This document shows, in pieces, positions 6,208 to 24,965 of a DNA stretch of 64,000 nt. Position numbers and translations under genes: made by a program. Each line of letters starts with the position of its first letter. Positions within the stretch are counted from its first letter, which is position 1. Below the pieces are notes generated by a model. That model did no database searches. It was not told the origin of the DNA and saw only the letters and a list, made by a program, of their open reading frames with translations. Source of the DNA: an uncultured Gammaproteobacteria bacterium (GTDB taxonomy: Bacteria > Pseudomonadota > Gammaproteobacteria > GCA-002705445 > GCA-002716945); contig CAJQLO010000001.1 of the NCBI GenBank assembly GCA_905479195.1, positions 368,694 through 432,693 of the forward strand, written 5' to 3'.

Positions 6208-7005
6208 TTATAGTTTAAATAAAAAAACTTCTGAAAGATTATTACTATTTGTATTCCCATAATATCTTATTAAATTTTTATTTTCTAAAAATATTTTTTT
6301 ACTGATTACATTTGATATTTCTTTAAAGTAAAATTTTGTAAAATTATATTCAGCATCATTAGATCTGGCGTACTCTTTAACTACTTTCTTGTCTTTTGTA
6401 AAAATAGTTCCACGCTTTATGCCTTCAGCAAATATTTTACCTATCTTTCCCTTTATGATAATTGTCCCAGATAGCATATCATTACAAGCATAATCACCTA
6501 TATTACCCTCTATAATTACATTACCTCTCCGCATTCTCTCAATGGAATTATTTCCAACATTACCTTTTACATATAAGAAACCATCAACTATACCAACATT
6601 TCCATGATTAGTTTTCCCACCTGTATAGTCACCAGAGTTTCCATATATAAATATAGAGCCTCCTTTAATTCCAGATGCTGCATAATCTAGTGCATTACCA
6701 TATAATATAAGTTTTCCAGAAAGCATTTGTTCGCCAAATGAATAACCAACATTTCCATGAACGGTAATATTAATATTATTTAACTCTTTGCCGATATTAT
6801 CCATTAAATCAACTGAAGATTGGATAATAATGTTTTTTATATCATTACCCTTTATGCTGAAAAGCTCTTTAACTTTAAACTGTTTATTTCCATAAGATAT
6901 AATCTGAGATGAAAGCCTAGATATATCTTTATAAGAATTAGATAAGAATGACATATCTATCCTATATTTTATTTTCTTCTTTAGTTTTAGTATCACTGGA
7001 TTCAT
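6208..7005 (-). CDS. fhcC: formyltransferase/hydrolase complex subunit C (FwdC/FhcC-like beta-helix protein)
   Basis: Repeated GN(V/I)G..G beta-helix motifs (HGNVGYSFG, YGNALDYAASG, YGNSGDYTGG, KGNVGNN, EGNIGDYAC) typical of FwdC. 4-nt ATGA overlap with fhcD. Confidence 0.75.
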   Translation of the reverse strand: MNPVILKLKKKIKYRIDMSFLSNSYKDISRLSSQIISYGNKQFKVKELFSIKGNDIKNIIIQSSVDLMDNIGKELNNINITVHGNVGYSFGEQMLSGKLILYGNALDYAASGIKGGSIFIYGNSGDYTGGKTNHGNVGIVDGFLYVKGNVGNNSIERMRRGNVIIEGNIGDYACNDMLSGTIIIKGKIGKIFAEGIKRGTIFTKDKKVVKEYARSNDAEYNFTKFYFKEISNVISKKIFLENKNLIRYYGNTNSNNLSEVFLFKL

Positions 7006-7898
7006 TTCATGACTTTCCTTAAATGGAAATGATATTGCCCTAATTTACCACCATAATTTCCTGCAGATATGGCAACTATATCTTTTTTTATTTTCATTTT
7101 AGAAATACTTTGTATCGAAGTTTTTATTGCCTCATTGATATCATCAAATGTCAGTCCATTGATAACTATTTCCATCACACAATTTACATTAGCTGGTAGA
7201 GTACTCTTTGTAATACTCTTTAGTGTTGGACAAAAAGCGTCATTAGTAGATGCTATTAAAGCCTTGTATTTTGAACCAACTTTTGATCCAGACCTCACAA
7301 CCCCGCCAGGAAAAGGAGTTATAATATTTGGCTGATTTTTGATTGAATTTATTGCTGTCTCACAGGCAGACAAGCATGATTTTCTATTAGTACTCAATAC
7401 TAAAAAATTACCACCACCTATTGCTGGTACACGTGCAGTTGATTCTTCACAAAGAAATTCTCCATCCATGACTGGTATACGCCAAAATCTTCTGTCTTGT
7501 ATTTTTTTTGATATTTGATGGCCATCACCAAAGTATCTTAAGTTTTTACCTAAAGGAATTACATCTTCTCCGATCATCCCAGAAAATATAGCGGTTGTTG
7601 GGCAAGTGAGAATACACTGACCAACCCTGACCTCTAATTGCTTTTCTAGCTGACTTCTAGACATTGAAAATAGTAAGATTGAATAGCCTGGCCTGTTATC
7701 AGGTGTTTCTGACGATTTTAATTGTTTTTCGATGCCAGCTTCTATGCCGCATGCAATAACTGATGTAGCAAATCCAGTAAAAGAGTCACAGGCATGTTTT
7801 GCCCATTTTAAATTATCTGCTGTTACGATTATACGACTGGCTTTCATATTAAAAGCTTCGGCAAACGTATTATCTATTTTTATACCATTATAAATCAT
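7002..7898 (-). CDS. fhcD: formylmethanofuran:tetrahydromethanopterin formyltransferase (Ftr/FhcD)
   Basis: N-terminus MIYNGIKIDNTFAEAFNMKASRIIVTA matches the Ftr N-terminus (xINGVEIEDTFAEAFxMxGTRVLITA). Length 298 aa. Embedded in the fhc operon. Confidence 0.85.
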   Translation of the reverse strand: MIYNGIKIDNTFAEAFNMKASRIIVTADNLKWAKHACDSFTGFATSVIACGIEAGIEKQLKSSETPDNRPGYSILLFSMSRSQLEKQLEVRVGQCILTCPTTAIFSGMIGEDVIPLGKNLRYFGDGHQISKKIQDRRFWRIPVMDGEFLCEESTARVPAIGGGNFLVLSTNRKSCLSACETAINSIKNQPNIITPFPGGVVRSGSKVGSKYKALIASTNDAFCPTLKSITKSTLPANVNCVMEIVINGLTFDDINEAIKTSIQSISKMKIKKDIVAISAGNYGGKLGQYHFHLRKVMK

Positions 7899-9553
7899 TG
7901 CTTTCTTTTATATTTGCAATCATTAACATAAACAGGGCTGCCTACCAGGCTATTCATTTCATCATCGCTTAATATATAGTTATCTAATTTCATTGTATGA
8001 TATTTTTCAAAAAACTTACCTAAATCTTTTTCAATTGATTTATCATAATCTGGCTTAACAGTATGGGTTTTGCCCCAAACATATTCTTTTATTTTTCCAT
8101 TTTCTACAACTATTTTTCCATCTTTAATAACTAGAGATGGATGAGCAAACATCTCTTCTATATCTTTTTTATTTTTATCATAAACGGTTATGTCTGCATC
8201 AGATCCCTCAGATAGATTACCTTTCTCTTTTAACCCTAAAATTTTTGCGGGCGCTGATCTTGTCATGATGGAAATTTCGTTTAATGTATATTCTCTCTTA
8301 AGGGTGTGAAGAATAGTATGATTAAGAATTTCTTTTGGTAGTTGATTTAAAATATCATTACGAAAAGTTTTATCCATTAATAATTTAATCAAATGAGGAT
8401 ACGAGGTAAATGGTGCCCCATTAGGATGATCTGTAGTTAAAAAAACTTTCCAAGGATCTTCGGCTAATAAAAATATTTCTAAACCTATAGCCCATTGAAG
8501 AGCATTTACAAAACTTTTATCTTTATATTTAAAAGGAACTACGCCGCACCCTGCGTCACATTCTATGTCCATACACATCCATTTATTTGGATGAGCATGA
8601 TTATGGTTTCTATATTGAGACATACTATCACCAGACATAGTTACAGTTTGTCCAAACATTATTTGTCCTACATCACAAGTTAGATTCTCTATCTTATTTA
8701 AGTAGTTTGAAATTTCTACTGCTGCTGAAGAAAAACCCTTATCTCCATTATTGCCATAACTTTGAAATTGTATATGAGTTAAGTGAATTGGTAATCCATT
8801 CGCAGCTTTTATAGTTTCTATTGTCGATAGAAAATTTCCAGGAATACCTAAGTTACTGCAATGTACGTGTAATGGGTGAGGAACTCCCAAATCATATATT
8901 GCTCTTGTGAGCTTCTCCACTATTTCTCTTGGTGTTATACCATAGTATTTAGATTTCTCATCAACATTTAAGGCTCTTTGATTAAACTTAAATGCATTAA
9001 TGCCACCAGGATTAACAACTTTTATTCCCAAGGATTGTGTTGCACTTAAAATAAAAGCAACATAATCATTTATTGTTGATTGACTAGATTTCTTCCTTAG
9101 CAAATCTAAAAAGTAATCATCATTTCCTAGTAAAGCGTAACCGCCTTTATCAATAAATGGAATATCTGACATCTCTGCATGAGCTTGCCTTGCATTTATA
9201 GGTAGTAGAGCTGGTTCAAAACAAGTTGTATAACCCATTTCTATATACTTTAATCCAGTTTTAAGAGTAGATGGGGCAATAATAGCCGAAGAATCATATC
9301 CGGGTTCTTTTTCGTTATGAAATTCTTCCAGCATTAATCTTGCAATGTTAACCTTTCCTCCACCAATATGAGTATGAAGATCAATAGCTCCTGGCATTAT
9401 TATTTTATCTGAGCAATTTATGATTTTATCAACCTTAGACCTAACATTTTTCTTATCAATAATTTTTCCATCTTGAATAAAAATATCTTTTTTTACATTA
9501 GATATTTTGTTATGAGGGTCGTATACATTTCCAGATTTTAATTGTGTAATCAA
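7895..9553 (-). CDS. fhcA: formylmethanofuran dehydrogenase subunit A homologue (amidohydrolase superfamily; FhcA)
   Basis: 552 aa with an amidohydrolase metal-binding signature (PGAIDLHTHIGGG). Position between fhcB and fhcD. Confidence 0.8.
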   Translation of the reverse strand: MITQLKSGNVYDPHNKISNVKKDIFIQDGKIIDKKNVRSKVDKIINCSDKIIMPGAIDLHTHIGGGKVNIARLMLEEFHNEKEPGYDSSAIIAPSTLKTGLKYIEMGYTTCFEPALLPINARQAHAEMSDIPFIDKGGYALLGNDDYFLDLLRKKSSQSTINDYVAFILSATQSLGIKVVNPGGINAFKFNQRALNVDEKSKYYGITPREIVEKLTRAIYDLGVPHPLHVHCSNLGIPGNFLSTIETIKAANGLPIHLTHIQFQSYGNNGDKGFSSAAVEISNYLNKIENLTCDVGQIMFGQTVTMSGDSMSQYRNHNHAHPNKWMCMDIECDAGCGVVPFKYKDKSFVNALQWAIGLEIFLLAEDPWKVFLTTDHPNGAPFTSYPHLIKLLMDKTFRNDILNQLPKEILNHTILHTLKREYTLNEISIMTRSAPAKILGLKEKGNLSEGSDADITVYDKNKKDIEEMFAHPSLVIKDGKIVVENGKIKEYVWGKTHTVKPDYDKSIEKDLGKFFEKYHTMKLDNYILSDDEMNSLVGSPVYVNDCKYKRKQ

Positions 9554-9562
9554 GATTTCTTC

Positions 9563-10813
9563 CTATGCTAAGTTATCTAATATATTTTGCGTAGACGGTA
9601 ATTTAATATCTCTAATTTTTTTTAATGCGACAGAGACCACTTTATCAGTTCTAAACATTATACCTTCATAGTCAATTCCAGGTATACCTACAGGTATAAA
9701 AATATCAGGTGTCGAAGTAAAAGTAGTATTTGGATGACCTAAAACTATATTGGTAATATCGCTATTAATCTTTAATTTCCCAGAATTAATAGTTGAAACA
9801 TGAATTACCACATCCACATTTTTTTCATCTATTAATTTTTGGCTATTGAATGCATTACGGTCATGTTTAAAAGTCCCGTCCATATGTTTTATGCTAGATG
9901 GAAATCCAGTCATCCATGTTAATGCTTGCGAAGAAGTTTCGTCAGCGAGAATTCCTGATATTGGCATACATGCCGCTCTAGATGATACGTTAAGATCAAC
10001 AATATACTTACAAATAGCAGCAATTATTTTTTTTGGGTTAAGAGTTTTGATGAAATCTGAAGCAGTCCATGTTGCGACTATATATTTGGATTTATTAAGA
10101 ATATTTTTAATCTTAATAAGCTCGCTTTTTTTCAGTCCTTTTAATAACTTTAAGTCATCAGTAGCAAGTAATTTTAAAAAATCACCAACTAGATTTAAGT
10201 CTAGCTTGATGTTTGTGATATTACATTTTCCTTTCCCTTTAATATTTTTAACAATCTTTGCGGAAAAATTACCAATCAATATAATCTCTTTTTTGCTTGT
10301 AGGGAATAAGCTATTTTTGGGAGTTAATACTTTATCGATTAATCTTGGTGTTTTAGTCAAAACTTCATTACCAAATATAATAATGGCATCAGCCCGATTT
10401 TTAGTTTCAGTCAATGAGGTAGCCATATACCCAGTTCTTTGAACAACCCCAATATTTTGATATAAAAATTTAGAATTAACATGATCAACTATACAGTTTC
10501 GTTGTGATGCAAAACTTAATATTGATCTTAGTCCGGCTAATTCTACCCCATGATTTAAAATTAATGTTTCATTATGCCCTTTAATAAGATTTGAAATTTT
10601 TTTTAATGCTTCTGACAGCTTAACTACTTTTTTACCTACCATAGGCATGACTATACTTTTTGTATTTAGGTTATAAGATTCAATTTTTTTAGCACAAACA
10701 GTATTTTTTTGGTCAACCTTATATTGGTCATTTGTCGTTGTTACACTTATATCATCACAATGCATAGAGCAGAAAGGGCATGTTAAGTTTTTAATATTAT
10801 TTTGGCTAGTCAT
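9563..10813 (-). CDS. fhcB: formylmethanofuran dehydrogenase subunit B homologue (FhcB)
   Basis: The N-terminal LTCPFCSMHCDD...C motif aligns with the FwdB VVCPFCGTLCDD Fe-S motif, and a TKNRADAIIIFG block matches FwdB VKNRADVVVYWG. 416 aa. Confidence 0.8.
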   Translation of the reverse strand: MTSQNNIKNLTCPFCSMHCDDISVTTTNDQYKVDQKNTVCAKKIESYNLNTKSIVMPMVGKKVVKLSEALKKISNLIKGHNETLILNHGVELAGLRSILSFASQRNCIVDHVNSKFLYQNIGVVQRTGYMATSLTETKNRADAIIIFGNEVLTKTPRLIDKVLTPKNSLFPTSKKEIILIGNFSAKIVKNIKGKGKCNITNIKLDLNLVGDFLKLLATDDLKLLKGLKKSELIKIKNILNKSKYIVATWTASDFIKTLNPKKIIAAICKYIVDLNVSSRAACMPISGILADETSSQALTWMTGFPSSIKHMDGTFKHDRNAFNSQKLIDEKNVDVVIHVSTINSGKLKINSDITNIVLGHPNTTFTSTPDIFIPVGIPGIDYEGIMFRTDKVVSVALKKIRDIKLPSTQNILDNLA

Positions 10814-10896
10814 ATGGATATATTCTACATTATAACCATGTCACTTTGTACATAAAAGGTATAAAATATGGACGTGAATATACTATATCTATCACT

Positions 10897-11850
10897 ATGA
10901 ATAAGACTGTAAAAGAATTAAGTATCACTAGTCCATCCAGGTTACATCTTGGATTTTATGGTTTTGATGATAGCTATGGATATAAGTATGGGAGCATGGG
11001 ACTTGCAATTAATGCATATAAAACCTCTTTATCCATAAAAAAGTCAAAAATTTTTTCAAGCAATCTGCCAAAAAAGTTTACAACTCCAATTTTAAAATAT
11101 TTGAAGCTAAAAAAAGTTAGTAGTAATTTTGAAATTAACTTATTAAGTCAGCCGCCTAGCCATATAGGCTTAGGGTCTGGTTCACAACTATCATTATGTT
11201 TAGGAAAATCAATATTAATGCACCTTGGTATCAAGGCAAGTATCAGTGATATTGCTCGCATTTATGATAGAGGGGAAAGATCAGGCACAGGTATAAGAAT
11301 ATTTGAGAGAGGAGGTTTTGTTGTCGATGCTTGTAAAAAAGCAAACATGTTACCCGAGACAATGTTTAACTCTAAATTTCCTAGTAAATGGAAAATCATA
11401 CTTATTAATGATAATCAGCTAAAGGGAGCTTCTGGTGAGAAAGAAGTTAAATTTTTTAATAAGAATATTAAATTATCAAGACAGTATAAGGCCGAATTAT
11501 CACATATTGCCCTCAGAGGAATATTACCTTCAGTAATTTATAAGGATTTTGATAATTTTTCAAAAAATATTTCAGAATTTCAAAGGATCACATCTTTATT
11601 CTATAAGGATAAGCAGAAAGGTATTTTTTTAAGCCCTGATATCTCTAACATCATGGAATATATAGGAAATTATGATAATTTAGGGATGGGACAGAGCTCA
11701 TGGGGGCCAATGTCTTATATATTCGTTGAGTCTAGTTTGCATGCTAAAGAGCTTATAAGTATTATCCAAAATAAATTTAATGTGTATAATAACCTAACAT
11801 TTAAAATTGCAAGCTCATGGAATTCGGGCTATAAAATTAGTTACAAATAA
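10897..11850 (+). CDS. mptG: GHMP-kinase-fold protein, probable beta-ribofuranosylaminobenzene 5'-phosphate synthase (MptG-like; H4MPT biosynthesis)
   Basis: Start taken at MNKTVKEL (the ORF track extends to 10846). There is a GHMP-like Gly-rich loop (HIGLGSGSQLSL). The position is divergent from fhc, as for orf4/mptG in methylotroph H4MPT clusters. Confidence 0.55.
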   Translation: MNKTVKELSITSPSRLHLGFYGFDDSYGYKYGSMGLAINAYKTSLSIKKSKIFSSNLPKKFTTPILKYLKLKKVSSNFEINLLSQPPSHIGLGSGSQLSLCLGKSILMHLGIKASISDIARIYDRGERSGTGIRIFERGGFVVDACKKANMLPETMFNSKFPSKWKIILINDNQLKGASGEKEVKFFNKNIKLSRQYKAELSHIALRGILPSVIYKDFDNFSKNISEFQRITSLFYKDKQKGIFLSPDISNIMEYIGNYDNLGMGQSSWGPMSYIFVESSLHAKELISIIQNKFNVYNNLTFKIASSWNSGYKISYK

Positions 11851-11871: not shown

Positions 11872-12762
11872 ATGGAAAAACCTTTTTTATTACATATGAT
11901 AACACCTGAAAAGAACATCAGCCCTTTTGATGCGAATATGGCTTTTGACGCAGGTTGGGACTCTGTAATCCCATATACCAATATAGGAATGGATGAAATG
12001 CAAGGAATCGTTCAGGACACAATCTTTTCAAGATCCCCGTCTGCATTAAAGAGAACTGGAATTTTTATTGGTGGCAGAGATACACATATGGCGATGGATA
12101 TGATTGAAGAAGCAAAAAAGCATATGGTCCCACCATTTGAAGTACCTGTTTTTGCTGATCCTAGTGGAGCATTTACAACTGCAGCAGGAATGGTTGCCAT
12201 AACTGAAAAAGCTCTTAAAGACAAATTCTCTGAAAAATTTACAGGTAAGAAAATAGTAATCTTAGGTGGCACAGGACCTGTAGGTGTTGCCTCAGCTGTT
12301 ATCAGTGCTAAAGCAGGAAATAGTGTGTTATTAGTAGGAAGGAGTTTAGATAAAGCAGAGAGCATAGCAAAGATATGCAATGAGAAATACGGCTCAAAAT
12401 CTGTTACAGGAGCAGTTGACTCTGAGAAGAAATCATTTTTAATAGATGCTGATATTGTTTTTAATACTGGAGCAGCAGGCATTCAGTTGATGGATGACGA
12501 ATTAATCAAGAACGCAGTAAACTTAAAGATATGTGCAGATGTGAATGCTGTTCCTCCGGCAGGAATATCAGGAATAGATGCGATGGATAATGTTGTTCCA
12601 ATGAAGAACTCTAGCTCTGGCTGTTTTGGAATAGGAGCTTTAGCGATAGGAAACATTAAATATAAGTCTCAACATGATTGTCTAAAGCTAATGTATAGTT
12701 GCGATAAGCCGGTATACTTACATTTTGAACAAGCGTTTGAGTTTGCACAAAAAAATGTCTGA
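11872..12762 (+). CDS. mtdB: NAD(P)-dependent methylene-tetrahydromethanopterin dehydrogenase (MtdA/MtdB family)
   Basis: 296 aa. A Rossmann GxGxxG motif (ILGGTGPVGVASA) sits mid-protein and the N-terminal domain is typical of MtdA/B. Context is mptG upstream and mch downstream. Confidence 0.65.
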   Translation: MEKPFLLHMITPEKNISPFDANMAFDAGWDSVIPYTNIGMDEMQGIVQDTIFSRSPSALKRTGIFIGGRDTHMAMDMIEEAKKHMVPPFEVPVFADPSGAFTTAAGMVAITEKALKDKFSEKFTGKKIVILGGTGPVGVASAVISAKAGNSVLLVGRSLDKAESIAKICNEKYGSKSVTGAVDSEKKSFLIDADIVFNTGAAGIQLMDDELIKNAVNLKICADVNAVPPAGISGIDAMDNVVPMKNSSSGCFGIGALAIGNIKYKSQHDCLKLMYSCDKPVYLHFEQAFEFAQKNV

Positions 12763-13826
12763 TGATTAATGCTGTTGTTGTTATAAATTCAGACACAACA
12801 TATTTAGAAGAAAAATTTACATCCCTGGGGATCAAGGTTTTTGCTTTTGACCAATATTGTCATAATAACCTAGATAAAATTCAAGATATTACATATCTAG
12901 AATCATTTATAAACAATATCCTTATTGATTATCAGAATGTTGGCCTATTATATGGGTCTGGACTAGAAGACAAGCCTGAAATTTATGATTGCTTAAGACG
13001 AAAGTTAAGTATATTGGGTAATGATCCAAGAATTATTTCAAAGTGTAATGATTTAAGGCTGCTAACTAACACATTAGATGAGTGCAATCTCAAGTTTCCA
13101 GAATATGTAAACAATACTATAGGAATAAAAAAAAGATACCTATCAAAACCATTCAATAGTTCTGGAGGATATAATATAAACTTCAGTGAAAAATATAAAA
13201 AAAATCACTACCTTCAGGAGTATCTTGAAGGAGAAACATATTCAATATCATTCTTCAAGCATAAAGACAATTTTATTTTCTTAGGATTTAATAAGTTACT
13301 ACATCTTCGAAATTTTGACCCACATCCTTTTATACATGCAGGAGCATTAACGACTAATAAATTTTTAGAATCTACTAATATAATTAATTCATTTAAAAAA
13401 TTATCAGAAAAACTTTCAATGAATGGTTATAATAGTATTGATTTTAAAATACTAAATGAAGAAGTTTTTGTACTTGATATCAATCCGAGAATTACATCTA
13501 CATTCAAAATTTATAACGATACTTATAATAATGATTTATTGCATCTTATAATAAACCCTGGCCTTGATAAAAAACTAGAAAGTCATAATAATAATAAGTA
13601 TGCTTTCGTCCATATGTTTGTAAAAGAAGAGTATAAGTTTAAGAATTTTTTTATGGATGATCCTGAGTTTGTAAATCTCCCTAATGAAGGACAACATGTT
13701 GGGAAAAATCAGCCTTTATTATCAATATATCTAAATTCATTTTCAAATTTAGATTTAATGACAAGATTAAAAGAAAAAATTTCAATTACAACAAATCTTT
13801 ATAACTGCTATGATATAGATATCTAA
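12762..13826 (+). CDS. ATP-grasp family ligase (H4MPT/methylofuran biosynthesis, orf5/orf7/orf17-like)
   Basis: 354 aa with ATP-grasp architecture. Start overlaps the mtdB stop (ATGA). One of three ATP-grasp genes in the island. Confidence 0.5.
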   Translation: MINAVVVINSDTTYLEEKFTSLGIKVFAFDQYCHNNLDKIQDITYLESFINNILIDYQNVGLLYGSGLEDKPEIYDCLRRKLSILGNDPRIISKCNDLRLLTNTLDECNLKFPEYVNNTIGIKKRYLSKPFNSSGGYNINFSEKYKKNHYLQEYLEGETYSISFFKHKDNFIFLGFNKLLHLRNFDPHPFIHAGALTTNKFLESTNIINSFKKLSEKLSMNGYNSIDFKILNEEVFVLDINPRITSTFKIYNDTYNNDLLHLIINPGLDKKLESHNNNKYAFVHMFVKEEYKFKNFFMDDPEFVNLPNEGQHVGKNQPLLSIYLNSFSNLDLMTRLKEKISITTNLYNCYDIDI

Positions 13827-16629: not shown

Positions 16630-17148
16630 ATGGCAGTAATTGATAAAGTATTGGTCGGTGAAGGTTTGGTTGTTGAAGAAGGCGGAGACAATGAAATTGC
16701 TCATATCGATTTAATCATGGGACCACGTGGTTCTGCTGTAGAAGATGCGTTTTGTAATACACTTTGTAATAACAAAGATGGATTTACTTCGCTATTAGCT
16801 GTATGTGCACCTAATCTACCAACTAAACCAGCTACAGTAATGTTTAATAAAGTTACTATTAAAGGTGCTAAACAAGCAGTTCAAATGTTTGGACCAGCTC
16901 AAAGAGCAGTAGCTATGGCTGTTACAGATTCTGTGAAAGACGGAACAATTCCAGCAGCTGAAGCAAATGATATTTTCGTTTGTGTAGGTGTTTTCATCCA
17001 TTGGGATGCTAATGACGATGTTAGAATTTATGACTACAACTATAAAGCTACAATGATGGCTATTAAAGCTGCAGTTGCTGGCACGCCAACAGCTGAAGAT
17101 GTTGTTGCAGCGGCAGCAGATTCTTCTCACCCATACTCACCTAAGTAG
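16630..17148 (+). CDS. fae: formaldehyde-activating enzyme (condenses formaldehyde with H4MPT)
   Basis: Near-collinear identity to Methylobacterium Fae ([64 protein letters not shown]). SD AAGGAGA is present. GC-richer, high-expression-like codon usage. Confidence 0.92.
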
Positions 17149-17165: not shown

Positions 17166-17864
17166 TTAACCAGCTCTATTTTTAGAGCTGGTTTTTTCTT
17201 TTTGGATCATATATTTTGTAATCTTATTCTGATGAATCATTGTTGAAACTAAAACTCCACTCGCACCAAAATGCTTTGCTCTTTTGATATCAAATATAGA
17301 TTTAATTCCACCAGCAATATAATAATCTTGGTTATTATTCCTAATAAATCTTCTAGCAAGTTTATAATTAATATTATTTTTTGAACCAACTTGAAGCAAG
17401 TCCATGAGTATAATTTTTGATGGGGATGCTTTTTGTTGTCTATATATAGGTTTCTCTCCTATATATTTTCCCATAAAATCAAATGAGCAGACACAATTAT
17501 TAAATTTATTTGATGAAAATTCATAGCCTTTTGATTTTTCACTGCAAAAAACAGGATAATAATTTCTATATTTCTTTTTTAATTTTATTTCTTTCAAACC
17601 AGAGTCAATCCAGAATTTAATTTTTGGAAATGAAGATAAGATATCATCATATATCTTCGGGTCTATGATGTTATGCATAATTGCATCTAAATCAGCAATG
17701 TATAATATCTTAGGAGAATACCTTTTTACAATTTGATCAATTATATCTCTTGGATCTGTACTATTGTATAATTTGTGGTTGATAGACTGATAATTATCTC
17801 TATCACCTTTAATTGCTCTAACCACTTGGTTATTAAGAATGTCTATAACAGGGATTATGTCCAT
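17166..17864 (-). CDS. HisA/HisF-like (beta/alpha)8-barrel protein of the H4MPT biosynthesis cluster
   Basis: N-terminus MDIIPVIDILNNQVVRAIKGD resembles HisA MIIPALDLIDGxVVRLxQGD. 232 aa. Confidence 0.5.
   Translation of the reverse strand: MDIIPVIDILNNQVVRAIKGDRDNYQSINHKLYNSTDPRDIIDQIVKRYSPKILYIADLDAIMHNIIDPKIYDDILSSFPKIKFWIDSGLKEIKLKKKYRNYYPVFCSEKSKGYEFSSNKFNNCVCSFDFMGKYIGEKPIYRQQKASPSKIILMDLLQVGSKNNINYKLARRFIRNNNQDYYIAGGIKSIFDIKRAKHFGASGVLVSTMIHQNKITKYMIQKEKTSSKNRAG
17169..17198 (+). terminator. rho-independent terminator after fae (perfect 9-bp stem ACCAGCTCT / AGAGCTGGT, then a T-run); it overlaps the last codons of the convergent minus-strand gene
   Basis: Inverted repeat plus TTTTTTCTTTTT, read directly from the sequence. 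Confidence 0.7.
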
Positions 17865-17867
17865 AGT

Positions 17868-18818
17868 ATGAAAAAGATATTAATATATGAATATATTACA
17901 GGAGGAGGGCTTTTAAATGAAGATTTAACTTCTGATCTTATGAGTGAAGCTAATATGATAACTTCCTCGGTTTACGATAGTTGTCGGAAATCAAAGTATG
18001 TCAAGCATAACTATTTTAGAGATTTTCGCCTTTCATCTATAAATGAGAAAGAATCTATATTCTTAAGAGATAATAGCAAAATTTATGATATAGATTTTTT
18101 AAGAAAATATGATTATGTATTACCTATATTGCCAGAAATAGATATGAGACTGTATCTTTATGTAGAATACTTAGAAAAGAATGGAGTTGATGCTGTAATA
18201 TCTAATTCACAAACGATAAAAACATGTTCTGATAAATTAAAGTTTTATAAATTTTGCCAGAAGAACTCTTTGCCTACTATTGATACATATCAGAAATATA
18301 GTAGTAATTTACATAATAAGTTACTTTTAATTAAAGATAGGTATGGAGCAGGATGCTCTCATATAGAAATTACTAAAAATAAAAAAAACCTTGAACTAAT
18401 TAAGGATGATAAAATAATCCAACCTTATATAACTGGTGATGATTATAGTATCTCAATTTATTTTACTAAAAATAATTTTTATATACTAACTATCAATAAA
18501 CAAATATTGGAGTATAAAAATAATAGAGCTAGGTTAAGTAGTATTATTGTTAATGTGGAACACCCTGCATATTTAAAAATAATAAATCTTATATCAAAAA
18601 TTAAAGATTCACTTCCAGGACTATATGGTTTTGTTGGTGTTGATATTATAACTAAAGGTAATGATATATTTATTATTGAGATTAACCCTAGATTGACAAC
18701 ATCATTTATTGGAATTTATGACACAATAGGGATAAATATTATTGATTTAATAATATCCAGAAAACCATTAAAAAATATTATAAGTGGAAAGAAGTATCAT
18801 ATAAATAATCATGGATAA
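17868..18818 (+). CDS. ATP-grasp family ligase (third copy in the island)
   Basis: Start taken at MKKILIYEYITGGG, since the ORF-track start at 17775 would overlap the divergent gene by 90 nt. Glycine-rich loop and ATP-grasp architecture. Confidence 0.5.
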   Translation: MKKILIYEYITGGGLLNEDLTSDLMSEANMITSSVYDSCRKSKYVKHNYFRDFRLSSINEKESIFLRDNSKIYDIDFLRKYDYVLPILPEIDMRLYLYVEYLEKNGVDAVISNSQTIKTCSDKLKFYKFCQKNSLPTIDTYQKYSSNLHNKLLLIKDRYGAGCSHIEITKNKKNLELIKDDKIIQPYITGDDYSISIYFTKNNFYILTINKQILEYKNNRARLSSIIVNVEHPAYLKIINLISKIKDSLPGLYGFVGVDIITKGNDIFIIEINPRLTTSFIGIYDTIGINIIDLIISRKPLKNIISGKKYHINNHG

Positions 18819-19860
18819 AAAAAAATTATATATTGGTTGGGACATAGGTGGTGCTCATACAAAATACACTATATCGTCAGACACTAGAGATACAGTAGAA
18901 TCTAGAATTATACTTTGTGAACTATGGAAATCTTTATCACGGTTAGAAGGTATAGTTAAAAGCATAGATATAAAATATAGAAAAAAATTTCATATAATAA
19001 ATCTAATTAGTATGTCAGCTGAAATGTGCGATATCTTTTCTTCCAGAAGAGAAGGTGTTAAAGCGATACTTTCTTTATTTGAGAATAAAGGTTTTATTAA
19101 CCATATATATTCTAAAGATAATGGGATATTAAAGTTTCAGGGTTTTAAAAAATATTCATCTCTAGCGTCAACAAATTGGATGGCTATTCCTGATTATTTG
19201 AAAAATATGGATAAAAATATAATAGCTATTGATATTGGATCTACTACTACTGATATAGTTCTTATCAAAAACCATATATGTATAAACAGAAGGCATGATG
19301 ATTATTCAGGCCTTAATACTAAAGAGTTACTTTATACTGGCGTTTTAAGAACTCCCATATACTCAGTAATAAAAACCCTTAATTTAAATAAGAGGGTATA
19401 CAATGTGATTCCTGAAAATTTTGCTACGATGTCTGATGTTTATCGATTACTATCAATTATCCAAAAAAAATCTGATTATACTAATACAGCTGATGGAAGA
19501 TTAAAATCAAAAAAAGATACTTTAAATAGGATTTCAAGAGTTTTTGGATTTGATTATTGTGTGGATAAAAACAAGACTATTCATATGTTGTCTAGAAAAA
19601 TCATGTCAGCGCATCTAGATCAAATAAGTTATACTATAAAAAGTCATATTAAAGATAACTTCTCTACCGTGAAAGATCTCAAAGTTATTGGTATGGGTGT
19701 TGGTAGAATGCTTATTAATATGATAAGTAAAAAAAATAATTGGAAATATATGTCTTTAGATAAGTATATTAATATTAAATATAATAAGAGATTGTGTGAG
19801 CCATCTGATGCAGCACCATCTTTTTTGCTTTCTTTGTTATTAAAAAAACATTATGAATAA
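18811..19860 (+). CDS. hydantoinase/oxoprolinase-like ASKHA-fold protein (H4MPT-cluster associated)
   Basis: N-terminal LYIGWDIGGAHTK and internal IAIDIGSTTTDIV phosphate-binding motifs typical of hydantoinase_A/ASKHA. Assignment is tentative. Confidence 0.45.
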   Translation: MDKKKLYIGWDIGGAHTKYTISSDTRDTVESRIILCELWKSLSRLEGIVKSIDIKYRKKFHIINLISMSAEMCDIFSSRREGVKAILSLFENKGFINHIYSKDNGILKFQGFKKYSSLASTNWMAIPDYLKNMDKNIIAIDIGSTTTDIVLIKNHICINRRHDDYSGLNTKELLYTGVLRTPIYSVIKTLNLNKRVYNVIPENFATMSDVYRLLSIIQKKSDYTNTADGRLKSKKDTLNRISRVFGFDYCVDKNKTIHMLSRKIMSAHLDQISYTIKSHIKDNFSTVKDLKVIGMGVGRMLINMISKKNNWKYMSLDKYINIKYNKRLCEPSDAAPSFLLSLLLKKHYE

Positions 19861-21214
19861 ACAACATAAAATTAGTTATGACTATTATGGTGATACTCGC
19901 GATATATTTGCAGTAATCAAAGATTCTGAGTGGTCAGTATTTTTATGTAGTAATCATGATAAGTTTCAAGATGAGAGATATGACATACTTAGTGCTAATC
20001 CAGTAGAAAAAATAATTTCTTATATAGATAAGACTACAGTAGAAAATAAAAATGGTATCCAGGAATATAAAGATGACCCAATAGATGTGGTAGGTATTGT
20101 CATGAAAAAGTACCCCTCCGATATTAGTGACTTGCCATTTACTGGTGGAGCGATTGGTTATTTATCATATGATTTAGGTAATCATTATGAAGGTATTGAA
20201 ATTAAAAAAAATGATCTTAATGTACCACTTATGGCATTTGGTATTTATGACTGGGCAGTTATTGTTGACCATCATAAGAAAAATACAACTTTAGTTTATA
20301 GAAATGAAGATTCCTTTATTGAAAATATAAAATTATGCCTTGAAAAAAAAATATTTGATAAGAATCAAGAAAAAAAATTCTTAATTAATTCAGCTTGTGA
20401 ATCGAACATTACCCATGATGAATATGAAAGTAAATTTAATAAAATACAATCATATATCCAGAGTGGAGATTGCTATCAAATTAACTTTTCACAAAGATTT
20501 TCTGCTCAGTATAGTGGGGACACTTGGGATATTTACAATAAGATAACACCTGCTTACTCATCACCTTACTCGGCATATATAAATATGCCTTTTATTAATA
20601 TAATGAGTTTTTCTCCAGAACGATTTCTCTCCTATGATGGAAATATTGTAGAGACCAAACCAATAAAAGGAACTCGTCCTGTTTCTGCTGATATACAGGT
20701 TAATAAACAGCTTATAGAGGAATTATCTACTTCATATAAGGAGAGAGCAGAAAACTTAATGATTGTCGATTTACTGAGAAATGATTTGGGAAAAAATTGT
20801 GAATTTGGTTCGGTAAAAGTTAAGGAGTTATTTAGTATCGAGACATTTGCAAACGTCCATCATCTTGTCAGTACTATTCAGGGTAAGATTGCCAGTAATA
20901 GTAATATTTACAAGCTTATTAAGGACTGTTTCCCTGGAGGTTCTATTACAGGTGCGCCAAAAATTAGGGCTATGCAGATTATAAGCGAGCTTGAGCCCGA
21001 CAATAGAAATATTTATTGTGGCTCTATAGGCTATATTAGCTTTAGCGGAACAACTGACTTAAATATTGCTATTAGAACTGTAATTGCCATGAAGGATAAA
21101 TTATATTTTTGGGGAGGAGGCGGGATAGTCTATGACTCTGAAATTGAATCAGAGTATAAGGAAACATTTGATAAAATCAAACCTCTATTAGATTTACTTA
21201 AAACTCCAACTTAA
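19853..21214 (+). CDS. pabB: chorismate-utilising enzyme, aminodeoxychorismate synthase component I-like (PabB-like; supplies the aminobenzoate moiety of H4MPT)
   Basis: 453 aa. The C-terminal chorismate-binding domain is conserved (SPERFL, G(T)RP, MIVDLLRNDLG, ETFANVHHLVSTIQG, FPGGSITGAPKIRAMQII.ELE). A pabB homologue is a known member of methylotroph H4MPT clusters. Confidence 0.75.
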   Translation: MNKQHKISYDYYGDTRDIFAVIKDSEWSVFLCSNHDKFQDERYDILSANPVEKIISYIDKTTVENKNGIQEYKDDPIDVVGIVMKKYPSDISDLPFTGGAIGYLSYDLGNHYEGIEIKKNDLNVPLMAFGIYDWAVIVDHHKKNTTLVYRNEDSFIENIKLCLEKKIFDKNQEKKFLINSACESNITHDEYESKFNKIQSYIQSGDCYQINFSQRFSAQYSGDTWDIYNKITPAYSSPYSAYINMPFINIMSFSPERFLSYDGNIVETKPIKGTRPVSADIQVNKQLIEELSTSYKERAENLMIVDLLRNDLGKNCEFGSVKVKELFSIETFANVHHLVSTIQGKIASNSNIYKLIKDCFPGGSITGAPKIRAMQIISELEPDNRNIYCGSIGYISFSGTTDLNIAIRTVIAMKDKLYFWGGGGIVYDSEIESEYKETFDKIKPLLDLLKTPT

Positions 21215-21881
21215 TTTTTTTTGAAACTTCTTTTGCTAGATTTATATTAAATTTATACCGTGCTTTCGATGAATCACATAATTGCCCTCTAAATCCTAAA
21301 AAATCAGGATTTAACTCTTTTAGCATTTGTATATGATCAAGTTTTAAAGATCCAGACAAGCCACAAATCATCCCATAAGATTTTACTATCTTTAAAAAAT
21401 CTTTTATCTCTTTCTGGCTCAATAGGTCTATTATTGATTTACTATTTTTATGACATGTATCAATCATTATGCCTTGATAACCCATACCGATAAGTTTTTC
21501 TACATTATTAAGATCGAAGTCTTGGTCAGCAAATATTACACAGATAGGTTTAGTATTTTTGAAATTAATTTGTTCAAGAATAATCCGATGTTCTGATAAA
21601 TATTTTTTATCAAACATTCCTATCTTTAAATAATTTATTTCTTTTTCTATAAGAATCTTTAAATTTTTTATATTACTATTATTATTTGGATTAATATCAT
21701 TACCCATAGTTACACTAAGAATATTATTGGGTAATAAAATTTTTACTTTAGAGATCAATTCAATGCCTACAAAACCTAATGCACCATCATTAATATTTTT
21801 TAAATCTAAAATATCAATATCAACTTTTGAAGCAATAGTTGCCTCATCAATATCTTTTACACTAGCAAGAAATCCTACCAT
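21198..21881 (-). CDS. mfnB: MfnB-like (5-formylfuran-3-yl)methyl phosphate synthase family TIM-barrel protein (furan moiety of methylofuran/methanofuran)
   Basis: N-terminus MVGFLASVKDIDEATIASKVDIDILDLKNINDGALGF matches the MJ1099/MfnB N-terminal pattern (LLVSPxDxEEAxEAxxGGADIIDVKNPKEGSLGA). 227 aa. Confidence 0.6.
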   Translation of the reverse strand: MVGFLASVKDIDEATIASKVDIDILDLKNINDGALGFVGIELISKVKILLPNNILSVTMGNDINPNNNSNIKNLKILIEKEINYLKIGMFDKKYLSEHRIILEQINFKNTKPICVIFADQDFDLNNVEKLIGMGYQGIMIDTCHKNSKSIIDLLSQKEIKDFLKIVKSYGMICGLSGSLKLDHIQMLKELNPDFLGFRGQLCDSSKARYKFNINLAKEVSKKIKLEF

Positions 21882-21882
21882 G

Positions 21883-22452
21883 TTATTTCATATTCTCTTT
21901 TTGGAATTCTTGGATCTTATCTTCTATCCATTTCCATGCTTGAGACTCTCTTGGCCCCGCGGTCTTTTTAATTCCTATCTTAAGATATTCTATTTCTTGT
22001 AAAATTTTTTCTATAGGTAGCATTCTCAGCCTGCTAACCAATACTGATGCCTCTATTACTGAAAACTGTGCCCTATTAAAACCCATAAATGGTTTATGAA
22101 TTACTTTTTTACTTATATCACATACTATATTAGGTCTTTTCTCATCATCTTTAAATTCTTTGGCTATTACATTATAATGAGTATTAGCTAATGTCAGCCT
22201 TGGGACCACACTCTTATCTTTAATATCTTCTAGCTCCCAATCTTTTTTATATTTTGTAACAATTCCTGCAAACACTCTTACATCATCAATAAAGTTTATG
22301 GTCGCTAGATTATTTTTAGTAATATTCTCTAATGTTTGAGATGGCCGAAAAGGTGAAATAATAACTCTATCGTCGATGAGTTGTATTCCCATAGGCGCTA
22401 TATGAACTATATTTTTTTCAGAGACGGTTGTGACTATAACTTCATGTATCAT
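21883..22452 (-). CDS. DUF447-like protein (possible MfnF-like methylofuran biosynthesis enzyme)
   Basis: 189 aa. The family is assigned from memory of DUF447/MJ0840-like proteins clustering with mfnB, and is weakly supported. Confidence 0.35.
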   Translation of the reverse strand: MIHEVIVTTVSEKNIVHIAPMGIQLIDDRVIISPFRPSQTLENITKNNLATINFIDDVRVFAGIVTKYKKDWELEDIKDKSVVPRLTLANTHYNVIAKEFKDDEKRPNIVCDISKKVIHKPFMGFNRAQFSVIEASVLVSRLRMLPIEKILQEIEYLKIGIKKTAGPRESQAWKWIEDKIQEFQKENMK

Positions 22453-23840
22453 TTTTTCTTTTTAAAAGTTGGACCTTGTTCTTTAAATTCAAGCTTATCA
22501 TCAATCTTTTCATCTACTAAGCAACCCCATTTCAATTCTTCATCTTGTTCATAAGTTTTTCCTAGTTGGTGTGCAATTTGAGCTCTAGCTAATTCCACCC
22601 CTAAATAAAAAGCATGACCAGTATCATCTCCAACGTCTATCTTTTCAAAGAAATCAAAAGGATCGATAGCAACTTGCAACCCTTTTTTATTAAACAAATT
22701 AACACCATCATCTGTATTCATTATTCTATAGCTAGAATCTTTAACTTGTTCAAACAATTCTTCAACTTCTTGCGCATTATATCTTATAGGATCTTCTTCA
22801 TGAGTTGTAAGTAGTCCTGAATTAATATGTTTTGGCGTGGTGTTTCCAAGACTTGCTGCTAGAATAATCCTTCGTGCTAAATCACTTTCTTTAATTACTG
22901 TTCTGCAATGTTTGCTAACTTCAGTAGTTAAAATATGATTAATTTTAAGTTCAGATATTATCCCCATCAGTATCATAGTCATTCCAGTTGTATCTGCATG
23001 AGTAAGCTCTGTTACATTACCAGTACCCATCATAATATGGATATCTGGATACCTTTTTCTTAATTCACTATACCTGGTAATTGATTGAGTAAAACCATAG
23101 TTTATTGGATCTAAAATAGGGTCTGCAATAAATATTCTTTTATTTTCAATACATCTATCAATGCAATCATATAGACTGACCATATCTCCATCCTTAGGTA
23201 TTAGGATAGGGTATGAATCTACTTCATCTAGGATATAAAAATTATCTGATTTTATACTCAAAAGATAGTCTGCTCCGGATTTTCCCCCAAGAATTAATTC
23301 TTTATCTAAATGAGAATCTATGCTGACATAAAAATCTTGACGTTTTAGCTCTTGTATAGTTTCAGATAAATGAGGAAATGGTTTATTAGGTAAACAGCCA
23401 ATATCAATTATATCTGCACCATTATCTCTATAATAATTAGCCATGCTGATAATTTCTTGTATTTTCATATTAGGAGCATCAGTTATTTCAGCAAATATAT
23501 GTACCTCGTACTTTGAGAGATCATATTTTAAAGGATTACCTCCAAACATAACTGGCAAGTCTTTTAATTCTTCTGGTCCGCGCTCAATTTTAATCTTAAG
23601 TTTTTTAGCCAACTCATCTATATCGCCTCTAACCTTCCCAGGCAATATAATCTTGCTGAAGTTATCCACATTTCCAATACGCCTATATATCATTTCTGTA
23701 GTAAGCAATGCAGCAACATTAATATTAAGATTCCTTATTTCATATGAAAAATCTTTCTCTTCTATGCAGTCTAAAATCTTCTTTAGATTTTTCTCAGCTA
23801 ATTTTCCCGTAATAAATAAAATATTCTTTTTCATACCCAT
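22449..23840 (-). CDS. dihydropteroate-synthase-like pterin-binding enzyme with C-terminal extension (MJ0107-like; H4MPT biosynthesis)
   Basis: 463 aa. The central region has a DHPS-like barrel pattern (DIIDIGC..., GTGNVTELTHADTTG). The size and extra C-terminal domain resemble the archaeal H4MPT-specific DHPS homologue. Confidence 0.6.
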   Translation of the reverse strand: MGMKKNILFITGKLAEKNLKKILDCIEEKDFSYEIRNLNINVAALLTTEMIYRRIGNVDNFSKIILPGKVRGDIDELAKKLKIKIERGPEELKDLPVMFGGNPLKYDLSKYEVHIFAEITDAPNMKIQEIISMANYYRDNGADIIDIGCLPNKPFPHLSETIQELKRQDFYVSIDSHLDKELILGGKSGADYLLSIKSDNFYILDEVDSYPILIPKDGDMVSLYDCIDRCIENKRIFIADPILDPINYGFTQSITRYSELRKRYPDIHIMMGTGNVTELTHADTTGMTMILMGIISELKINHILTTEVSKHCRTVIKESDLARRIILAASLGNTTPKHINSGLLTTHEEDPIRYNAQEVEELFEQVKDSSYRIMNTDDGVNLFNKKGLQVAIDPFDFFEKIDVGDDTGHAFYLGVELARAQIAHQLGKTYEQDEELKWGCLVDEKIDDKLEFKEQGPTFKKKK

Positions 23841-24361
23841 TTTTTTAGAGCTCGATTTAATTTCATAACATTGTCCACAACATCAACATTCTTAAATTTT
23901 TTTAATTTTTCATAATTTTCTAACTCTATATCACGTGGGTATAATGTCACAGACTTTTTTGGTGCTTGTGTTATTACCGTAGGCTCAGTATCACAGGCAA
24001 AGACTATTGAGTGTATTTTGCATTTACCAGCTTGTGCAAACATATTTGTCACCAAAGTATCTGATAATCCATAAGACATTTGTGCAATAGTATTAGATGT
24101 TGCAGGAGAAACTACAATTAGCTTATATACATTCTCATATAGTAAACTAACAGGAGCAGAGCTAGCTGTAATATCTTTAAAAACCTTAATTCCTTTTGAT
24201 TTAAAATCTTCAAGACTATAATTATACCATTTAAGAACTTCCTCGCCTGCTCCACTAAGAAATAAGTCTACATTTTTTAGAGTAAATATAATCTCTATTG
24301 ATTCTTTTAGATAATGACCAGAACCAGTAATACACCACGCTATTCTTTTTGTATTATCCAT
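23831..24361 (-). CDS. dmrA: AfpA/DmrA-like flavoprotein (dihydromethanopterin reductase candidate)
   Basis: 176 aa. The N-terminal IAWCITGSGH flavoprotein motif resembles the CoaC/AfpA family. Known partner in H4MPT clusters. Confidence 0.5.
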   Translation of the reverse strand: MDNTKRIAWCITGSGHYLKESIEIIFTLKNVDLFLSGAGEEVLKWYNYSLEDFKSKGIKVFKDITASSAPVSLLYENVYKLIVVSPATSNTIAQMSYGLSDTLVTNMFAQAGKCKIHSIVFACDTEPTVITQAPKKSVTLYPRDIELENYEKLKKFKNVDVVDNVMKLNRALKKWV

Positions 24362-24362
24362 A

Positions 24363-24965
24363 TTATTTTATGCTTTTATTTATTAGTGTTTTATATTCTA
24401 TCAAGTCTTCTTGGCTGTTTATATTAATAAATATATTTTTCTCATCTGAGAAATCTACTAATTCTAGGCTACATTGATTATACCATTTATCAATTTTTCT
24501 CTGACCAGTATCTATAAATGATTTTAAGTTATTCAATAGATCTTTTTTTATTAAGGAATATACGGGCTGTATCCTATCTCCATTATGAGCAGCTCTAACA
24601 TCAAAATGATTATTAATGTTAGTCATGCGCTCAAAGTATGTGTGACTAAGTAATGGACCATCACATGGTAGAGTTATTAGATATTTTGTTTTAGTATTAA
24701 ATAATGATGTATATATGCCTGACAAGGGTCCTTGATAATCCTTTAATATATCCTGCCAAGTTATTAGCCCCATTTTATTATATATATCAATATTTCTATT
24801 AGCATTAACATAAATTTCATTAGAGTATTCTTTGCAGATATCATACAAATGTTTGATAACATATTTTTTGTTTATCCGCATTAAACCTTTATCCTGGCCA
24901 TCCATTCTCTCGGATTTCCCGCCTGCTAATATTACTATTGTTATATCTTCTTTATTTATATTCAT
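24363..24965 (-). CDS. mobA: molybdenum cofactor guanylyltransferase
   Basis: N-terminal VILAGGKSERMDGQDKGL matches the MobA LAGGxSxRMG motif. 200 aa. First gene of a minus-strand operon. Confidence 0.75.
   Translation of the reverse strand: MNINKEDITIVILAGGKSERMDGQDKGLMRINKKYVIKHLYDICKEYSNEIYVNANRNIDIYNKMGLITWQDILKDYQGPLSGIYTSLFNTKTKYLITLPCDGPLLSHTYFERMTNINNHFDVRAAHNGDRIQPVYSLIKKDLLNNLKSFIDTGQRKIDKWYNQCSLELVDFSDEKNIFININSQEDLIEYKTLINKSIK

Follow-up and report, generated by a model that had tools for sequence, protein, structure and literature searches.

A predicted tetrahydromethanopterin/methylofuran formaldehyde-oxidation gene cluster beside mtoX in a genome-streamlined marine gammaproteobacterium

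Gene content and packing of the cluster

We analysed a 64,000-nucleotide stretch of DNA (hereafter the window; contig CAJQLO010000001.1 of assembly GCA_905479195.1, positions 368,694 to 432,693) from an uncultured gammaproteobacterium of the order GCA-002705445, and found at its positions 6208-24965 a gene cluster predicted to encode a tetrahydromethanopterin (H4MPT)/methylofuran (MYFR) formaldehyde-oxidation module. The interval is filled exactly by 20 open reading frames (ORFs), from the stop codon of fhcC to the start codon of mobA; 19 of them belong to the module, and the twentieth is mobA. A sequence-only reading of this DNA had counted nineteen contiguous genes. The contiguity was confirmed and the count was one too low; the MfnB-like gene (21198-21881) and the DUF447 gene (21883-22452) had been overlooked. 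ORFs were assigned by NCBIfam and Pfam profile scans, with the best sequence matches in the Protein Data Bank (PDB) as backing. The features are as follows, in window coordinates.

6208..7005, minus strand: fhcC, subunit C of the Fhc complex, last gene of the fhcBADC operon; TIGR03122 151 bits (cut-off 130.65), 6S6Y_C 100 bits.
7002..7898, minus strand: fhcD, formylmethanofuran:H4MPT formyltransferase; TIGR03119 429 bits (cut-off 292.6), 6S6Y_D 322 bits.
7895..9553, minus strand: fhcA, amidohydrolase subunit predicted to hydrolyse formyl-methylofuran; TIGR03121 722 bits (cut-off 392.75), 6S6Y_A 418 bits.
9563..10813, minus strand: fhcB, FwdB-like scaffold subunit; TIGR03129 194 bits (cut-off 327.8), no Pfam match, full-length alignment to 5T5I_B.
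10897..11850, plus strand: mptG (orf4), beta-ribofuranosylaminobenzene 5'-phosphate (beta-RFAP) synthase, first committed step of H4MPT synthesis; TIGR00144 125.5 bits (cut-off 113.5).
11872..12762, plus strand: mtd, methylene-H4MPT dehydrogenase; PF09176 Mpt_N 120 bits, MtdA structures 1LU9/6TGE 147 bits.
12762..13826, plus strand: MyfA-like ATP-grasp ligase in the orfY position; PF02655 72.8 bits, partial MfnD match, position between mtd and mch conserved.
13830..14798, plus strand: mch, methenyl-H4MPT cyclohydrolase; TIGR03120 412 bits (cut-off 228.8).
14795..15706, plus strand: MyfB-like RimK-type glutamate ligase in the orf5 position; MptN_Meth 172 bits, rimK_fam 138 bits (cut-off 143.4).
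15712..16590, plus strand: CitG-family protein in the orf7 position; PF01874 176.7 bits.
16630..17148, plus strand: fae, formaldehyde-activating enzyme; TIGR03126 225 bits (cut-off 118.05), 1Y5Y 215 bits.
17166..17864, minus strand: HisA/HisF-related protein (orf17); TIGR00734 80 bits, PF00977 64 bits.
17868..18818, plus strand: MfnD-like ATP-grasp ligase, a second paralogue, of the Methylobacillus flagellatus 'orf1' type; NF040722 MfnD 107 bits.
18811..19860, plus strand: MfnF-like/TIGR03123 protein (orf9); TIGR03123 225 bits (cut-off 244.1), MfnF 138 bits.
19853..21214, plus strand: pabB, aminodeoxychorismate synthase component I, providing para-aminobenzoate for H4MPT and folate; TIGR00553 373.5 bits (cut-off 328.4).
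21198..21881, minus strand: MfnB-like synthase of 4-(hydroxymethyl)-2-furancarboxaldehyde phosphate (4-HFC-P; orf22), furan ring; PF04476 150.6 bits, MJ1099 structure 4RC1 70 bits.
21883..22452, minus strand: DUF447 protein, putatively in the orf20 position; PF04289 76.6 bits, PF20766 68 bits.
22449..23840, minus strand: dihydropteroate synthase (DHPS)-like pterin enzyme with an N-terminal DUF6513, putatively in the orf19 position and MptH-like; TIGR00284 177 bits (cut-off 256.65), PF20123 94 bits.
23831..24361, minus strand: DmrB/AfpA-type flavoprotein, candidate dihydromethanopterin reductase; 3WIS/4MWG 178.8 bits (E 7e-52), TIGR02699, TIGR02700, PF02441.
24363..24965, minus strand: mobA, molybdenum cofactor guanylyltransferase; TIGR02665 174 bits (cut-off 151.85).
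2170..6203, plus strand: mtoX, SCO1-MauG fusion and thioredoxin-like genes outside the cluster; NF052453 693 bits (cut-off 650), PF05694, PF02630, PF03150.

The names orf19 and orf20 were assigned by gene order only, from PMC3615186, and the Mtd subtype is likely MtdB, as judged from position only. Two start codons were corrected: ATG at 10897 is likelier for mptG than the TTG at 10846 that opens the mechanical ORF, and gene calls in the relatives L002 and L003 have 317 amino acids; ATG at 17868 is likelier for the MfnD-like gene, which has gene calls of 316 amino acids in relatives. With these corrections 99.0% of the cluster span is coding, and genes overlap at 9 of the 19 junctions, so that the compression into 18.8 kb with overlapping genes described previously was confirmed. 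The whole window is 96.5% coding, with a median intergenic gap of 3 bp and a GC content of 0.31.

Scores above the curated NCBIfam cut-offs were obtained for fhcC, mobA, the MptG-family gene (TIGR00144), pabB (TIGR00553) and all four core genes fae, mch, fhcD and fhcA. Pfam gathering scores were exceeded by Mpt_N (in Mtd), CitG, ATP-grasp_3, 4HFCP_synth (in the MfnB-like protein) and DUF447. The fhcB, TIGR03123/MfnF-like, DHPS-like (TIGR00284), AfpA/DmrX-type flavoprotein, MfnD-like, MptN/RimK-like and HisA/F-related genes matched the right family below equivalog cut-offs. The best matches among solved structures were the Methylobacterium extorquens Fhc complex 6S6Y (for FhcA, FhcC and FhcD) and 1Y5Y (for Fae); other characterised structures matched were Burkholderia xenovorans DmrB and Methanocaldococcus jannaschii MfnB. 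These NCBIfam, Pfam and PDB matches bear out that an AT-rich, streamlined genome here carries H4MPT/methylofuran C1-transfer genes clustered with those for making the cofactors.

Strand and spacing suggest five transcription units, namely fhcBADC, mptG to fae, orf17, mfnD-mfnF-pabB, and mobA-dmrB-orf19-orf20-mfnB. A terminator scan placed a strong hairpin terminator 3' of fae at 17168-17193. The promoter scan, uninformative in AT-rich DNA, was at chance level overall (113 matches versus 120.5 expected); its best promoter-like site for the mobA unit lies at 25103-25074.

Gene order and comparison with known clusters

The 20 window proteins were compared with 80 loci (one genome per species) and then with 48 metagenome loci. 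In every compared locus where the other subunits were detected, the fhc genes lie in the order B-A-D-C along the coding strand of fhcD. Lineages with this order include Methylophilus, Methylococcales, Thiobacillus, Methylocella and Methyloligella, and hence Alpha-, Beta- and Gammaproteobacteria, as well as planctomycetes and Gemmatimonadales. The order had been taken for an unusual one, because the conventional map name fhcCDAB was read as the order of transcription; it is the order of all these loci. The divergent arm mptG-mtd-orfY-mch-orf5-orf7-fae is conserved as well as the fhc order. The order of the cluster is identical in loci of Methyloceanibacter, Methyloligella, Thiobacillus, a Methylophilaceae metagenome-assembled genome (MAG) and TMED127, and it agrees with the islands described in PMC3615186.

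Most of the gene content is shared with M. extorquens AM1/PA1 and other alphaproteobacterial methylotrophs (fae, mtdB-type, mch, fhcABCD, mptG, orfY, orf5, orf7, orf9, orf17, orf19, orf20, afpA, orf22 and pabB), and clusters of the M. extorquens type likewise combine the fhcBADC order with the divergent arm from mptG to fae. The genes form one 18.8-kb block here, whereas M. extorquens carries them in several islands. In addition, mobA is embedded in the cluster here and an extra MfnD-like ligase, which M. extorquens is without, is encoded; orf21/MfnE was not found by tblastn, no hidden Markov model match named DmrA was obtained, and the reductase is of the DmrB type.

The MfnD-like ligase together with MyfA, the DmrB-type reductase and an FhcB with CPxCxxxCDD are shared with beta- and gammaproteobacterial clusters (Methylobacillus flagellatus, Methylophilus, Methylococcales, Burkholderia/Variovorax), and the contiguous dhps-DUF447-mfnB genes with the gammaproteobacterial locus L026. 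The window differs from these clusters in its FhcD, only 57-63% identical (60-63% to loci of Methylophilaceae and Methylophilus MAGs), in its GC content of 0.31 against 0.36-0.58 and in being more compact. Another likeness is to TMED127/Methylaequorales, alphaproteobacteria of about 1.5 Mb, whose methylotrophy island of about 45 kb, described in 2025, holds H4MPT genes, xoxF5 and genes for pyrroloquinoline quinone (PQQ) and lanthanide uptake (PMC12542740). Both have small AT-rich ocean-surface genomes and a compact, collinear H4MPT block (L045, from AG-892-F10, and L052, from CM1_5m.P40; GC of the loci about 0.30). In contrast to TMED127, whose FhcB is without the cysteine motif, the cluster here has mtoX and a cell-division cluster as neighbours, and the window ORFs gave no match to methanol-oxidation families.

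Cofactor biosynthesis genes

In M. extorquens, Orf22 is MfnB, Orf21 is MfnE, Orf9 is MfnF, OrfY is MyfA, which attaches the second glutamate of methylofuran, and Orf5 is MyfB, which extends its polyglutamate; the HisA/F-like Orf17 is required for methylofuran synthesis in that organism (PMC8141765). The usual islands are mch-orf5-orf7-fae-orf17, orf19-orf20-afpA-orf21-orf22 and fhcCDAB, with mptG, orfY, dmrA and pabB associated (PMC3615186). By family and position, the window holds all of these genes except orf21 and dmrA.

H4MPT would be supplied by PabB, MptG, the DHPS-like enzyme and DmrB, probably with the CitG-like and DUF447 proteins. The H4MPT-synthesis set is present, with TIGR00144 and TIGR00553 above their cut-offs, TIGR00284 below its cut-off at 177 bits and the DmrB structure matched at 179 bits. 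The flavoprotein had been called DmrA-like. It belongs to PF02441, and its only relative in the PDB is Burkholderia DmrB/AfpA (3WIS/4MWG, 179 bits). DmrA is a dihydrofolate reductase (DHFR)-like protein, which the flavoprotein is not, and no DHFR-like family was matched among the window ORFs of at least 100 amino acids.

For methylofuran, the candidate suppliers are the MfnB-, MfnD- and MfnF-like proteins, the MyfA- and MyfB-like ligases and Orf17; the orf9 product, as an MfnF homologue, is predicted to condense the furan with Glu-tyramine/tyrosine moieties. Five of the six members of the methylofuran set are present (MfnB, MfnF/orf9, MyfA, MyfB and Orf17), and MfnE/orf21 is wanting. A tblastn search with Methylocella orf21 (L076 2701-3339) matched nothing in the window, even at E<=10, or in the 48 related loci, and family scans of the window gave no match named MfnA, MfnC or DmrA. 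The set had been described as complete and essentially that of Methylobacterium, which the absence of MfnE/orf21 from the 64-kb window and the 48 related loci contradicts. An MfnE-type kinase may be encoded elsewhere in the genome. In a 2021 survey, an MfnD-like paralogue beside MyfA went with tyramine-type methylofuran in 5/6 strains (PMC8141765 Table S4); the paralogue in the window is of the type known from M. flagellatus and other producers, mostly of tyramine-type methylofuran.

Formaldehyde source and physiological role

The roles of the pathway enzymes are established for their families and were assigned here by homology. Fae is predicted to join formaldehyde to H4MPT, the MtdB-like Mtd to convert methylene-H4MPT to methenyl-H4MPT, and Mch to open methenyl-H4MPT to formyl-H4MPT. 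FhcD would then move the formyl group to methylofuran and FhcA would hydrolyse formyl-methylofuran to formate, with FhcB and FhcC as a putative non-redox scaffold. MobA may mature a Mo-dependent formate dehydrogenase that converts formate to CO2.

The genes for mtoX, a SCO1/SenC-MauG fusion and a thioredoxin-like protein end 4 bp from the fhcC stop codon in convergent orientation, and they adjoin fhcC in 12/12 clade loci that extend that far. In a second gammaproteobacterial lineage (L027, L032) these genes adjoin fhcB instead, in a different arrangement. Methanethiol oxidase converts methanethiol stoichiometrically to formaldehyde, with H2S and H2O2 (PMC5739008), and the adjacent enzyme is the most likely in-situ source of formaldehyde.

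The order GCA-002705445 is sister to SAR86, and its genomes have a GC content below 40% and are hard to assemble. The H4MPT pathway has been described as complete in its 1.1-Mb genomes, in which no C1 assimilation was recognisable (PMC8371827 supplement), and alkB expression in the photic ocean is highest in this order (PMC13488336). The window fits these published traits in its GC content of 0.31, its coding density of 96.5% and the presence of the H4MPT genes and mtoX. Contigs from the north-western Mediterranean and other marine metagenomes encode a 100% identical FhcD.

We favour a dissimilatory methanethiol/C1 module for energy and detoxification, which the gene content suggests, and do not take it as proof of methylotrophic growth. 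The alternative weighed against this is that the module mainly supports methylotrophy on methanol, as in TMED127, and not the oxidation of methanethiol-derived formaldehyde; we regard such a role as less likely. Related marine gammaproteobacterial orders express methanol dehydrogenases (PMC8371827; PMC12542740), and the order GCA-002705445 itself has been described as containing methylotrophs (PMC13488336). However, xoxF, mxaF, PQQ, lanthanide-uptake, serine-cycle and ribulose monophosphate (RuMP) families were unmatched among window ORFs of at least 100 amino acids, and the conserved neighbour here is mtoX. In addition, two species of GCA-002705445 had no clear assimilation pathway (Francis et al., PMC8371827 supplement), and the expressed proteins named for the order include SBP56/methanethiol oxidase, detected in North Sea metaproteomes, and not methanol dehydrogenase (PMC8371827).

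On the homologies assembled here, we consider the cluster to be a vertically inherited chromosomal H4MPT/methylofuran formaldehyde-oxidation module of a genome-streamlined marine gammaproteobacterium, with a probability of about 0.85. Several points weigh against this. An MfnE-like kinase, MfnA and MfnC were not found in the window, and the window sequence does not show a complete route to methylofuran. Several cofactor-synthesis genes score under the NCBIfam equivalog cut-offs, and FhcB is without a Pfam match. The mtoX gene stands on the opposite strand, convergent with fhcC, so that its link with the cluster is one of adjacency and not of co-transcription. Finally, formate dehydrogenase, methanol dehydrogenase and assimilation genes are absent from the 64 kb, and the steps upstream and downstream of the module are assigned conditionally.

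Inheritance of the cluster

The cluster has the composition of its surroundings. Its GC content of 0.306 and mean GC at third codon positions (GC3) of 0.216 equal those of the right flank (0.303) and of 20 other genes (GC3 0.217). The window contains no tRNA genes, and no integrase, transposase or other mobility family was matched among its ORFs of at least 100 amino acids. Apart from the shortest fragments, 15 species-level loci from MAGs and single-amplified genomes (FhcD 77-97% identical, GC 0.27-0.36) and 48 metagenome contigs (DHPS-like protein 63-100% identical, GC 0.26-0.33) are collinear with the window. Loci reaching far enough share their neighbours as well: mtoX, the SCO1/MauG fusion and thioredoxin on one side, and dusA, a methyltransferase-like ORF, mraZ, rsmH, ftsZ and ftsI on the other. 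A genomic island would be expected to deviate in composition, to carry mobility or tRNA genes and to be patchily distributed among relatives, none of which was found. The word 'island' in the sequence-only reading therefore does not apply in the sense of horizontal transfer, given the composition, fixed position and clade-wide synteny. The region is old and vertically inherited.

In neighbour-joining trees of FhcD+Mch+Mtd, the 12 clade loci with all three markers and the window were monophyletic with 100% bootstraps. The same trees, and those of FhcD, grouped the clade with AT-rich TMED127-like alphaproteobacteria and not with other Gammaproteobacteria (75% bootstrap), while the TMED127-like group separated from other Alphaproteobacteria. 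The loci of that group (L036, L045-L048, L052, L054, L059 and L064; GC 0.27-0.31) have a collinear cluster, and two of them are named TMED127 genomes. Together with the gene order common to both groups, which includes mfnD-mfnF beside orf17, this could be read as a recent horizontally acquired island, for example through exchange of this clade with another AT-rich marine lineage such as TMED127. We consider this improbable. Support for the grouping dropped from 75% to 29% after Dayhoff-6 recoding; both groups share an extreme FYMINK-rich amino-acid composition, which may have drawn them together artefactually. In GC and GC3 the cluster does not depart from its flanks, no tRNA gene is present, no integrase or transposase family was matched among the scanned ORFs, and the clade holds the cluster in one position and order even where the DHPS-like protein is only 63% identical. 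Furthermore, the same order occurs in Methyloceanibacter and Thiobacillus, indicating that the order of the cluster is ancestral. A transfer long ago, at the base of either clade, may have taken place. The neighbour-joining trees did not settle the relation to TMED127, being sensitive to composition.

The Fhc complex and mobA

All four Fhc subunits are encoded: A, C and D pass the family cut-offs, and B aligns over its full length and lies in the conserved position. The alignment of FhcB (416 amino acids) with archaeal FwdB covers both ends, and FhcB retains an N-terminal CPFCxxxCDD, but SKFL replaces the SVCH that holds the W/Mo-ligand Cys-His of 5T5I_B. In an alignment of 60 homologues, the Cys-His at the metal-ligand position is absent from the other 59 bacterial FhcB proteins too. 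The CPxCxxxCDD motif is retained in most FhcB proteins of Beta- and Gammaproteobacteria, planctomycetes and Gemmatimonadales and lost in Methyloceanibacter, Methylocella and most TMED127-like FhcB, and in keeping it the window protein differs from the alphaproteobacterial loci of the alignment. The FhcB of M. extorquens (6S6Y_B, 361 amino acids) is N-terminally shorter and matches the window FhcB only from residue 69 on. Since FhcB is without the W/Mo-ligand Cys-His, the complex is predicted to be of the hydrolase type, non-redox and in need of no molybdopterin.

Homologues of the archaeal Fwd/Fmd and Mfn/Mpt systems are found for A, B, C, Ftr, MfnB, MfnD, MfnF, MptG, the MptH-like DHPS and the DmrX/AfpA flavoprotein. 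FwdD, FwdF and FwdG are family names from archaeal Fwd. Unlike archaeal Fwd, the cluster has no redox site in subunit B and no match to FwdD, FwdF, FwdG, MfnA or MfnE, and it would run in the oxidative and hydrolytic direction, ending in formate. The combination typical of Fwd/Fmd, a Mo/W-bis-pterin site in subunit B with FwdD and electron-transfer subunits, is not present in the cluster. That the fhcBADC-like genes encode a true Mo/W formylmethanofuran dehydrogenase (formyl-methanofuran to CO2 or the reverse), for which mobA would supply bis(molybdopterin guanine dinucleotide), might be argued from the in-cluster operon that mobA heads in every related locus reaching upstream of afpA, from the full length of FhcB and from its cysteine motif, kept unlike in the M. 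extorquens protein, but it is hardly credible given SKFL in place of SVCH here, the lack of Cys-His in the other 59 bacterial proteins, the lack of a Pfam molybdopterin-domain match in FhcB, the lack of matches to the FwdD, FwdF and FwdG families among window ORFs of at least 100 amino acids and the hydrolase complex 6S6Y as best match for FhcA, FhcC and FhcD.

Of the 48 related metagenome loci, all those extending upstream of afpA open the mobA-dmrB-orf19-orf20-mfnB unit with mobA, followed by a 1-bp gap, and MobA identity among related loci goes down to 40%. In the other lineages compared, no mobA was found at distances of up to 10 kb from fhcD. MobA had been counted as completing the set; it is not a canonical H4MPT gene, and Fhc is predicted to need no molybdopterin. 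The gene probably serves a Mo-dependent formate dehydrogenase encoded elsewhere, co-regulated with its unit.

Neighbouring genes and related assemblies

Directly upstream of mtoX, positions 576-2078 encode a 500-amino-acid protein with a signal-peptide-like N-terminus and the C-terminal residues LTWTF. It has no Pfam or NCBIfam match and resembles an outer-membrane beta-barrel. L001 and L005 encode it too; L004 has a truncated and L002/L003 a fragmented version. In L001, some 8 kb before the mtoX cluster and beyond the window start, positions 17962-20897 encode an AlkB-like FA_desaturase (410 amino acids), a small ferredoxin and a Fer2/FAD/NAD reductase, which agrees with the very high alkB expression reported for GCA-002705445. 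The loci L002 and L003 (ERZ1699696 and ERZ1699695), with 100% identical FhcD, contain many split genes (among them citG in three pieces, with mch and fhcB broken), whereas other assemblies of the same population have these genes intact. The splits look like assembly indel errors and not pseudogenes.

On the other side of the cluster, a bacterial class A RNase P RNA (295 bits), the sole Rfam match in the window, lies at 26829-27165 between the dusA/methyltransferase-like genes and mraZ. The cell-division cluster (28928-32092, 38410-41284) is rearranged, with ftsZ (29212-30381) between a short ftsL-like ORF and ftsI and not after ftsA; ftsZ lies between rsmH and ftsI in all related metagenome loci reaching that far. 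In this region murB follows murG, in the usual place of murC, and no murC match was found among the window ORFs. Two tandem genes for small c-type cytochromes (108 and 104 amino acids) lie on the minus strand at 58259-58896, downstream of a resistance-nodulation-division (RND) efflux pair.

Discussion

The pathway itself is a textbook one, and a complete H4MPT pathway has already been reported for this lineage. Modestly new are the synteny across the clade, the mtoX operon beside fhc, mobA at the head of the DmrB operon, the relocated ftsZ, the missing MfnE-type kinase and the contrast with OM43. The pathway was lost altogether from streamlined Methylophilaceae (OM43, Ca. Methylopumilus; PMC6794327), whereas the clade studied here kept it. 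On this ground, and with FhcD only 60-63% identical to the Methylophilaceae and Methylophilus MAG loci, an OM43/Methylophilaceae host was rejected for the window.

A tentative extension, which we hold to be less probable than its negation, is that in this order, among the most abundant of the still undescribed gammaproteobacterial orders in the surface ocean, the H4MPT module is no methylotrophy device but forms the hard-wired downstream half of a methanethiol-burning unit, and that methylofuran is made without the canonical MfnE. If so, the chain would run from mtoX through Fae/Mtd/Mch/Fhc and a formate dehydrogenase matured by MobA to CO2, and it would have survived extreme genome reduction in this clade, whereas OM43 dropped the pathway. 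Methylofuran synthesis without the MfnE kinase would imply an unrecognised furan-phosphate kinase.

The value of the cluster lies in ecology and comparison. As a clean and minimal layout it can serve as a reference for the H4MPT/methylofuran genes of bacteria, with one step, the MfnE-type kinase, flagged as missing. Nearly 19 kb of a genome of roughly 1 Mb goes to this module, which stays beside mtoX throughout a deep, globally distributed clade. Because the module is retained beside mtoX across the clade, whereas OM43 lost the pathway, its retention points, for this abundant and uncultured ocean lineage, to formaldehyde from methanethiol, in the turnover of dimethylsulfoniopropionate and dimethyl sulfide, or from other C1 compounds as a significant energy source.

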